Below the pieces are notes generated by a model, which was given only the letters and a program-made list of their open reading frames with translations, was not told where the DNA came from and did not search any database. From the NCBI RefSeq assembly GCF_003018115.1, contig NZ_CP027457.1: a stretch of 64,000 nucleotides of DNA; one strand, 5' to 3'. Below, piece after piece: positions 50,073 through 50,956 of this stretch. How positions within the stretch are numbered: position 1 is the first letter of the stretch; each line of letters starts with the position of its first letter. The translations under genes were made by a program, and so were the position numbers. The DNA is from Escherichia coli. GTDB lineage: Bacteria > Pseudomonadota > Gammaproteobacteria > Enterobacterales > Enterobacteriaceae.

Positions 50073-50747
50073 TTATTCCTGTGCCCAGCCAACCCTGTAT
50101 GCCAGGATCTCATCCGCACTGCTCAGCGATTCCAGGTCCTTCTTCATGGTGCGCTGGCGAATGTGGATTTCCATCCCTTTAGTGAACATCGCCTGCTCTG
50201 CCGCTTCACTCAGCGCAATAAGCTCTTCTGCTGTCACCGGCACATCATTGTTTTCCGCATCCGTCCAGAAAAACGCCTCCGGCAGTTTCCCCGCTTTCGC
50301 TGCCGCCACCGATGGCTCAAGACGCGTCTGCGTTGACTTCCCGTAGTCCCATTTCCGGCCATTGTGCTCAAACGTGTAGTTCGCCGCCTCCATCGCATTA
50401 CGCCACGCGTTTATTTCATCGCCCTTCATCCCGCGCGCTTTCTCCGCGGTCAGCAGATCCGTGATTTTCTCCCCGTCAAAGCCCCACCGCCCCGAGATAT
50501 CAGCTTTGCGGTTTTCTTCCGTATCCGCCACCTCCGCAATACTCTGATTCGCTGGCCACAGCGCCTGTACGTCCCTGCTGATATCAGTGATAACCCCTGC
50601 ACTGTTATAAACCACTTTCAGCGTATCCGGCGAAAACAAGGGCAGACACTCATACCAGTCCTGACCATCCTCTGATTTCAGGTACATCGCCCCCGGAACA
50701 TCCGGATTTTCCGGCGTATACCAGATGAAGTTTTTAATATTTACCAT
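50073..50747 (-). CDS. tfa: Tail fibre assembly protein, P2 gpG-like
   Basis: N-terminus ...KSEDGQDWYECLPLFSPDTLKVVYNSAGVITDISRD resembles P2 G (...[36 protein letters not shown]); start set at MMVNIK. Confidence 0.7.
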   Translation of the reverse strand: MVNIKNFIWYTPENPDVPGAMYLKSEDGQDWYECLPLFSPDTLKVVYNSAGVITDISRDVQALWPANQSIAEVADTEENRKADISGRWGFDGEKITDLLTAEKARGMKGDEINAWRNAMEAANYTFEHNGRKWDYGKSTQTRLEPSVAAAKAGKLPEAFFWTDAENNDVPVTAEELIALSEAAEQAMFTKGMEIHIRQRTMKKDLESLSSADEILAYRVGWAQE

Positions 50748-50956
50748 CATTGCCCCGCATCTCTCCAGATCGGCATATTCTCCGGCCCCACACACCTCTC
50801 CATTCCTGCCGGGGCTGCACTGGCAGAAAAGACCTTATACACGGCACTCGCCACAACAACACAGTCTTCCGGCCAGCTTCCGGCAGCCTCATAAACCGAA
50901 CGAAGCGAGGCCGGATAAAACGCATTATTTGATGGCGAAAAAAAATACTGTTCCAT
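50747..50956 (-). CDS. Hypothetical 69-aa protein between stf and tfa
   Basis: SD-like AGGAGG upstream; stop TGA overlaps the tfa ATGATG start, suggesting translational coupling; no family recognised. Confidence 0.35.
   Translation of the reverse strand: MEQYFFSPSNNAFYPASLRSVYEAAGSWPEDCVVVASAVYKVFSASAAPAGMERCVGPENMPIWRDAGQ

Follow-up and report, generated by a model that had tools for sequence, protein, structure and literature searches.

The host range of phages and tailocins is set by fibre tips together with their chaperones, and these parts are exchanged in pyocin retargeting and phage engineering. Three described systems are close to the locus presented here. In the model for tail fibre assembly (Tfa) proteins attributed to North et al. 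2019, as relayed by later papers (PMC9608196, PMC7882524), a variable N-terminal domain binds the fibre tip and a conserved C-terminal domain multimerises. Proteins with a DUF4376 domain are experimentally required as fibre chaperones in Alteromonas and Campylobacter systems (PMC7289586, PMC10579305, PMC7882524); they are accessory proteins encoded behind the fibre, and some of them remain bound as 'caps' (PMC10579305). In R-type pyocins, the solubility of foot constructs depends on the chaperone encoded downstream, which co-purifies with them (PMC6363177, PMC6116203), and the fold of the pyocin foot is most similar to that of the AP22 fibre 4MTM (PMC6116203).

In a stretch of Escherichia coli DNA of 64,000 nucleotides, here called the window, an earlier note had drawn attention to a small open reading frame of 69 aa, here ORF69, located behind a prophage side tail fibre gene. 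In this work, we compare this locus with the described systems. Our main reading, to which we give a probability of about 0.62, is that ORF69 is a genuine gene for a Tfa N-terminal domain only, whose product most likely docks on the foot of the fibre and helps it to fold or to remain soluble, possibly as a cap.

Location, gene order and translation signals

The locus lies on the minus strand, where the fibre gene, a Shine-Dalgarno (SD) sequence, ORF69 and a P2-G-like/DUF4376 gene follow one another:

50966..52678, minus strand: side tail fibre gene, 570 aa, with phage_tail_N, collagen repeats, a Mu-S'-like segment and a Gp53-like_C foot (Pfam and PDB sequence search)
50957..50965, minus strand: Shine-Dalgarno sequence GGAGGGAGA, read from the sequence, occupying the whole 9-nt interval from the fibre stop to the ORF69 ATG
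50747..50956, minus strand: ORF69, a stand-alone Tfa N-terminal domain of 69 aa, putatively fibre-binding (ORF list, PHROG 19350, phrog_188, dN/dS, AlphaFold2)
50073..50750, minus strand: gene for a P2-G/Mu-U-like N-domain with a DUF4376 C-domain, 225 aa from the first ATG, a probable fibre chaperone (PF14301, E 7.2e-18)

The 69-aa frame that the earlier note had placed at 50747-50956 is present in the ORF list, with its ATG at 50956 and its TGA at 50749-50747, and it lies on the minus strand, a detail that the note had left unstated. Its translation is MEQYFFSPSNNAFYPASLRSVYEAAGSWPEDCVVVASAVYKVFSASAAPAGMERCVGPENMPIWRDAGQ. The note was also right in claiming an AGGAGG-like SD; this SD is strong and fills the nine bases before the ATG. 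The same 9-nt spacing between fibre and ORF is found in three other loci (L006, L007 and L009), and in L011 and L012 the ATG of the short ORF is overlapped by the fibre stop. In all related loci, as in the window, the gene is directly 3' of the tail fibre gene and co-oriented with it, which is the position of a Tfa gene.

At the other end of ORF69, the TGA (50747-50749) meets a downstream ATGATG, forming an ATGA overlap with the first ATG and having one base in common with the second, which is the start used by RefSeq for the downstream gene. The SD of that gene is weak in the window (GCGGGG). This stop/start overlap had been described in the earlier note and holds for the window, while being polymorphic among related genomes; the translational coupling that the note had proposed holds as well. 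In the diverged lineages described below, the ORF ends in …MPVWVPVSEEGTET before the stop, the sequence GGAGGAGGG within its last codons provides an SD for the next gene, and an ATGA overlap is again present, an arrangement suggesting that translational coupling is typical of other lineages too.

The length of ORF69 alone is not significant, with 62 ORFs of at least 40 aa overlapping 8 kb of this region. Because ORFs of such size are abundant by chance, the case for ORF69 is built on comparative evidence.

Conservation, selection and existing records

Of 5426 complete E. coli genomes, 87 carry ORF69 DNA, in three lineages whose identity to the window is about 99%, about 75% and about 71-72%. 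Every E. coli lineage keeps the same order, with the fibre gene followed by a 70-74-aa ORF and then by a DUF4376 gene, so that the synteny with other prophages, on which the earlier note had suggested checking the ORF, is indeed found. Over the 64 codons that can be aligned among the three lineages, dN/dS is 0.12-0.19 at a dS of 0.65-1.6, the differences are distributed 16/6/25 over the codon positions, mostly at the third, and the remaining two frames are interrupted by stops in diverged copies. Homologues with a conserved frame, whose absence the note had named as an argument against a gene, are thus present. The 3' ends of the ORF differ, the window lineage ending in …WRDAGQ and the diverged lineages in …WVPVSEEGTET before the stop. 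A scan for ORF69 loci with the single protein returned solely near-identical E. coli copies. On this comparative evidence, ORF69 reads as a real prophage gene under purifying selection.

Some prophage copies are disrupted, by a T9 frameshift in strain 2014C-3097, by a 14-nt unit in 2014C-3307 and by a deletion in JNE120393, and for this reason ORF69 is considered dispensable for the lysogen, as expected.

The earlier description of the ORF as unannotated is true only relative to lambda. RefSeq and NCBI label it as a hypothetical protein, a phage tail protein or a tail fiber assembly protein; NCBI has the identical 69-aa protein under the name 'phage tail protein', and at least 1000 contigs there carry the 70-aa form and at least 1000 the 74-aa form. 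PHROG 19350 also matches over its full length (residues 1-69 against positions 1-69 of 70, E 6.8e-47). A single name, 'tail fibre assembly protein, N-terminal domain only', could serve for a protein that is carried on thousands of E. coli contigs under three labels.

Homology to the Tfa N-terminal domain

The earlier note had not recognised the family of ORF69, which is nevertheless recognisable through its homology to the Tfa N-domain: phrog_188, 'tail fiber assembly protein', matches ORF69 at profile positions 43-106 of 207 with an E of 1.6e-15. A word-indexed protein search with ORF69 gave 2 matches, and an exhaustive search, used instead, gave 356 homologues. The best 150 of these are mostly Tfa proteins of 130-165 aa that carry the ORF69 domain at residues 1-66, and 31 of the 150 best representatives are no longer than 90 aa, these short forms being scattered among the long ones. 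Full-length homologues match PF02413, over both halves, or PF16778. The C-terminal half of the homologue alignment matches Mu Tfa (5YVQ_B, E 1e-9), a match that comes through the long homologues only. Neither Pfam (at E<=1) nor NCBIfam has a match for ORF69 itself, which does not reach the gathering score of PF02413. Conserved residues of ORF69 include Y22, W28, P29, D31, P62 and W64.

The helical multimerisation domain at the C-terminus of Tfa (Mu gpU residues about 106-175) is absent from ORF69, which ends at the linker, and an HMM search found no remnant of a Tfa C-domain in positions 44000-58000 of the window or in any E. coli copy. AlphaFold2 predicts a compact b-b-a-b-a-b-b fold that spans all 69 residues with a pLDDT of 94, and no solved structural relative of this predicted fold was found. 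By this model, ORF69 is a complete domain, not a broken gene, and its homology marks it as a Tfa N-domain encoded alone, without the conserved C-terminal multimerisation domain.

Other arrangements of the same domain were also observed. P0003, a metagenomic representative of 999 aa, has at least eight tandem ORF69-type domains followed by a Caudo_TAP C-terminus, and P0005 (211 aa) has two tandem copies followed by a Tfa C-domain. Multi-headed Tfa architectures of this kind are, to our knowledge, undescribed.

The fibre and its Gp53-like_C foot

Two parts of the 570-aa fibre are of particular relevance:

51251..51655, minus strand: fibre residues 342-476, homologue of the Mu S' variable part (8JU3_A residues 191-324, E 2.8e-14)
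50969..51208, minus strand: Gp53-like_C lectin-like foot, fibre residues 491-570, the proposed partner of ORF69 (PF21882, E 2.6e-11)

In a PDB sequence search, the last ~100 residues of the fibre resemble the R1/R2 pyocin fibre feet 6CXB, 6CL5, 6CT8 and 6CL6. The Mu-S'-like segment is common to the fibre of phiSTEC1589-Stx1c, at 42% identity (L080:1928-2335), and the tip of that fibre differs. Further towards the N-terminus, the collagen-like Gly-X-Y region (51650-52280, minus strand) is very variable in length among strains, with fibres of 466 to 685 aa, and one RefSeq genome has a frameshift within it; lying between the conserved N-terminus and the variable tip, it is a spacer prone to recombination or slippage.

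Every readable fibre upstream of an ORF69-type domain, whether this domain is short or part of a full-length protein, ends in a Gp53-like_C foot. The foot immediately precedes the ORF69-type gene in the window, in L004 and in L007-L014, including the four diverged short forms L011-L014, which have in-contig stops and one of which belongs to a P2-like myovirus. The 143-aa Tfa of phage Bas97 is also encoded behind a Gp53-like_C foot. Foot and ORF69-type domain occur together in six further phages (of Pseudomonas, Serratia, Acinetobacter, a Mu-like G segment and others) and in Pseudomonas loci with R1-like and R2-like feet, and they are joined in four fibre-Tfa fusion proteins. An exception is the full-length homologue of Cronobacter phage JK004, which is not beside a fibre gene. 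This co-occurrence covers about 20 positive contexts and 2 negative controls and is a count without a formal background frequency.

The fibres of phiSTEC1589-Stx1c and PhiR5_1 are without the foot, and no ORF69-like sequence was found in any frame of either locus. In both, the DUF4376 gene is directly behind the fibre, and the DUF4376 protein of phiSTEC1589-Stx1c is 84% identical to that of the window in its N-domain and 99% in its C-domain. Because these foot-less phages have a DUF4376 gene and no ORF69, the short ORF tracks the foot and not the DUF4376 gene.

The same unit is seen when loci are compared along their length. L007 and L008 are 98-100% identical from the middle of the fibre gene through the DUF4376 gene, inside unrelated tail contexts. 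When L007 is compared with the window, divergence is shared by the fibre tip (50-61% identity), ORF69 (72%) and the N-domain of the DUF4376 protein (74%), whereas the N-terminus of the fibre (96%) and the DUF4376 C-domain (93.5%) are not part of it. Judged from these alignments, ORF69 co-occurs and co-diverges with the foot in the readable contexts, an association that is specific and was not previously recorded.

ORF69-type genes were also seen to abut a convergent tfa or to adjoin a DNA invertase (L011:1436-1675 and L014:982-1068, both on the minus strand; L030:1507-2073 and L033:1120-1737, the latter two being the invertase genes). On account of these neighbours, several ORF69-type genes belong to Mu-G/P1-C-like invertible fibre segments, and the short forms of L011 and L014 may be one arm of an invertible switch.

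R-type pyocin fibres

The link with the pyocin chaperone PA0621 is made through L079, a metagenomic contig of 987 bases, and not through the PAO1 record. The last 72 aa of the fibre encoded on this contig match the crystallised R2 pyocin fibre without a single difference. The gene behind this R2-type fibre begins MKGEYYFSPSQVAFYPASLREVYEYAGCWPVDG… after an ATGA overlap, and its product matches the ORF69 N-domain HMM with an E of 1.1e-19 and ORF69 itself with 54% identity over 41 aa. The widespread P. aeruginosa chaperone clusters P0204 and P0205 were considered as another route to PA0621 and rejected, as they belong to P2-like loci with fibres of 774-783 aa and not to the 691-aa pyocin fibre. 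PF16778 (Phage_tail_APC) is located at residues 73-144 of P0182 and P0205 and is absent from ORF69.

The downstream DUF4376 gene

The protein encoded behind ORF69 is matched by phrog_136 over residues 2-101 and also by phrog_11571. It had been called a P2-G-like tfa, a name that fits its P2-G/Mu-U-like N-domain but not the protein as a whole, which is not a classical Tfa, this N-domain being fused to DUF4376. It is a matter of speculation that the N-domain might recognise the Mu-S'-like segment of the fibre rather than the foot.

Junction polymorphisms and neighbourhood

Two variable sites were noted within and at the end of ORF69:

50744..50758, minus strand: 15-bp unit GCGGGGCAATGATGG at the ORF69/DUF4376 junction (alignment A1; match lengths of 1301, 1316 and 1331 bases)
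50938..50945, minus strand: T8 homopolymer, codons 4-7 (Y-F-F-S) (sequence and alignment)

The 15-bp unit, GCGGGGCAAYGATRR, is present in one copy in the window, in two copies in most related genomes and in three in S19-141, a variation that was seen at L001:3545-3590 and at the junctions of L002 and L003. In the one-copy form, stop and start overlap; the two-copy form encodes 70 aa ending in …AGQR and has a TAA stop and an 8-nt spacer; a 14-nt variant of the unit shifts the frame and extends the ORF to 78 aa. From the sequences of these forms, the copy number of the unit is predicted to change how the ORF69 and DUF4376 genes are coupled.

In strain 2014C-3097, the homopolymer is a T9, the frame of ORF69 is broken and RefSeq leaves the ORF unannotated; this T9 could be a sequencing error or the result of slippage. 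Phase variation through the T8 run was considered and rejected, as the diverged lineages do not have the run.

A 46-aa ORF of the Hok/Gef toxin family (52824-52964, minus strand; PF01848, E 2.4e-11) lies between gene J and the fibre gene, in the place where lambda has lom. A search of 49500-53300 against Rfam gave no element, including no Sok-type or hok-mRNA element at threshold. The cassette is at the end of the prophage, beside a YkgJ-family fragment and a DinI-like gene (49555-49803) in the region 49555-50072. In the window, the prophage abuts yecD/aspS, and elsewhere the cassette abuts potB/potA or an integrase (flanks of L006, L009, L010 and L002). Since the flanks of the cassette differ among strains, related prophages use several integration sites. 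Strains of serotypes O91:H21, O113:H21 and O104:H21 are among the carriers of the cassette.

Proposed mechanism

In the reading that we favour, ORF69 would be translated right behind the fibre gene from its own strong SD, and its product would dock on the C-terminal Gp53-like_C foot of the fibre, a lectin-like beta-sandwich that is also found at the tips of R-type pyocin fibres. The docked protein would help the foot to fold or to stay soluble and might remain in place as a cap, while the resident, translationally coupled DUF4376 protein would supply a general assembly function. The origin of the arrangement would be the joining of a unit, 'foot + cognate Tfa N-domain', to the body of a fibre with which a DUF4376 chaperone was already associated, the right-hand breakpoint of the joined unit being the Tfa inter-domain linker. 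We infer that ORF69 binds the Gp53-like_C foot because the two co-occur and because the pyocin chaperone provides a precedent. Because ORF69 is without a multimerisation domain, it could be a helper or cap that only binds, or the DUF4376 protein could supply the assembly. A point against our reading is that the Tfa model gives assembly to the C-domain, so that an ORF69 restricted to binding may not act as a chaperone. The earlier suggestion of a second fibre chaperone or adaptor is in keeping with the homology to the Tfa N-domain, but the evolutionary partner of ORF69 is the Gp53-like_C foot and not the downstream 'tfa'.

A more specific proposal, which we consider less probable than not, is that of a split Tfa system, in which a 7.5-kDa foot-binding domain would act as a removable cap or as an adaptor handing the foot to the DUF4376 assembly factor. 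If this is true, tip recognition and assembly are separable into two polypeptides, and phages can swap 'foot + binder' units independently of the assembly chaperone. If ORF69 binds feet, no smaller recognition unit would be known for the widespread Gp53-like_C or pyocin-type tip, and ORF69 would be a convenient co-expression partner for making such fibres. It would also provide a natural test of the two-domain Tfa model, by asking whether binding alone is useful and whether assembly is provided in trans by the DUF4376 protein.

Alternative explanations

The alternative that survives best, although we consider it unlikely, is that ORF69 is a relic: recombination with the DUF4376 gene or with the foot module would have displaced the 3' half of a full-length tfa and left the 5' half behind. 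As a protein, such a relic would be without function, and it would be retained solely because its translation brings ribosomes to the weakly initiated downstream gene. ORF69 does correspond to the N-terminal half of full-length Tfa proteins, the 3' end of the window lineage is remodelled, with a variable 15-bp unit, and some copies are frameshifted; in the window, the downstream gene has a weak SD and overlaps the ORF69 stop, which would also suit a relic. However, the dN/dS values indicate selection on the amino-acid sequence and not merely on translation, and in the diverged lineages the strong SD within the ORF would make a leader unnecessary. A relic also fits poorly with an ORF that ends at a domain boundary and is predicted to form a complete domain, with the lack of a C-domain remnant in any lineage, and with the recurrence of stand-alone forms in unrelated phages (the 31 of the best 150 representatives mentioned above), those of L011-L014 being always behind a Gp53-like_C foot.

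Rather improbable is a role restricted to that of a cap or adaptor, a functional sub-variant of the best explanation that follows the 'transient chaperone caps' proposed for Alteromonas phages. ORF69 would stay on the mature foot, masking its sugar-binding site until virion release, or would bridge the foot to the DUF4376 protein. The domain thought to drive assembly is absent from ORF69 and a DUF4376 chaperone is already there for that step, both in agreement with such a role, as is the behaviour of known chaperones, those of Mu (Tfa) and of Alteromonas phages (DUF4376) remaining fibre-bound (PMC10579305, PMC9608196) and that of pyocins co-purifying with the foot (PMC6363177). On the other side, classical chaperone behaviour is seen in full-length relatives that have the same N-domain.

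A programmed -1 shift of the lambda G/GT type near the end of ORF69, joining it to the DUF4376 ORF in a chaperone with two N-domains, is very improbable. The DUF4376 ORF does occupy the -1 frame, which has no stop over the 15 codons before its ATG, and natural proteins with tandem N-domains and a Tfa C-domain exist (P0005 and P0003). A slippery heptamer of the form X XXY YYZ, however, is missing from the overlap, both in the window and in the diverged lineages, the overlap is not conserved in sequence, the variants of the 15-bp unit and the form with TAA and 8-nt spacer alter the junction freely, and no Rfam element was found in 49500-53300; moreover, an ATG of its own serves the downstream gene, which in other lineages also has a separate SD.

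Finally, the chance that ORF69 is not a gene is negligible, since the abundance of ORFs in this region (62 of at least 40 aa in 8 kb) and the lack of a Pfam or NCBIfam match are outweighed by frame conservation with low dN/dS, hundreds of homologues and a confident predicted fold, which refute it, as well as by the strong SD and the conserved synteny.

Comparison with known systems

As a putative foot-binding Tfa N-domain, ORF69 has its nearest counterparts in PHROG 19350 (70 positions, function unknown) and in the RefSeq entries WP_000438829.1 and WP_047083776.1, which represent the same family over its full length. These entries have no functional assignment or bear inconsistent names, and they record neither the link to the Tfa N-domain nor that to the Gp53-like_C foot.

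The DUF4376 chaperones, including gp27 of Alteromonas V22, gp9 of A5 and that of Campylobacter CJIE1, are represented in the window by the downstream gene, which has a DUF4376 domain. ORF69 differs from them in being without this domain and in tracking the foot of the fibre. With Tfa proteins (Caudo_TAP, PF02413; prototype Mu gpU, PDB 5YVQ), ORF69 shares the position of its gene right behind the fibre and the homology to the N-domain; unlike them, it is without the C-terminal domain and stays below the Pfam gathering score.

The R-pyocin chaperone, of the PA0621/Prf16 type, differs from ORF69 in host and in tail type, ORF69 being associated with a siphovirus side fibre and the pyocin having a P2-like contractile tail. 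It is also longer, with about 145-158 aa and a C-terminal PF16778 module, whereas ORF69 stops at the linker. Its likeness to ORF69 lies in an N-domain of the same class and in its partner, a lectin-like Gp53-like_C foot.
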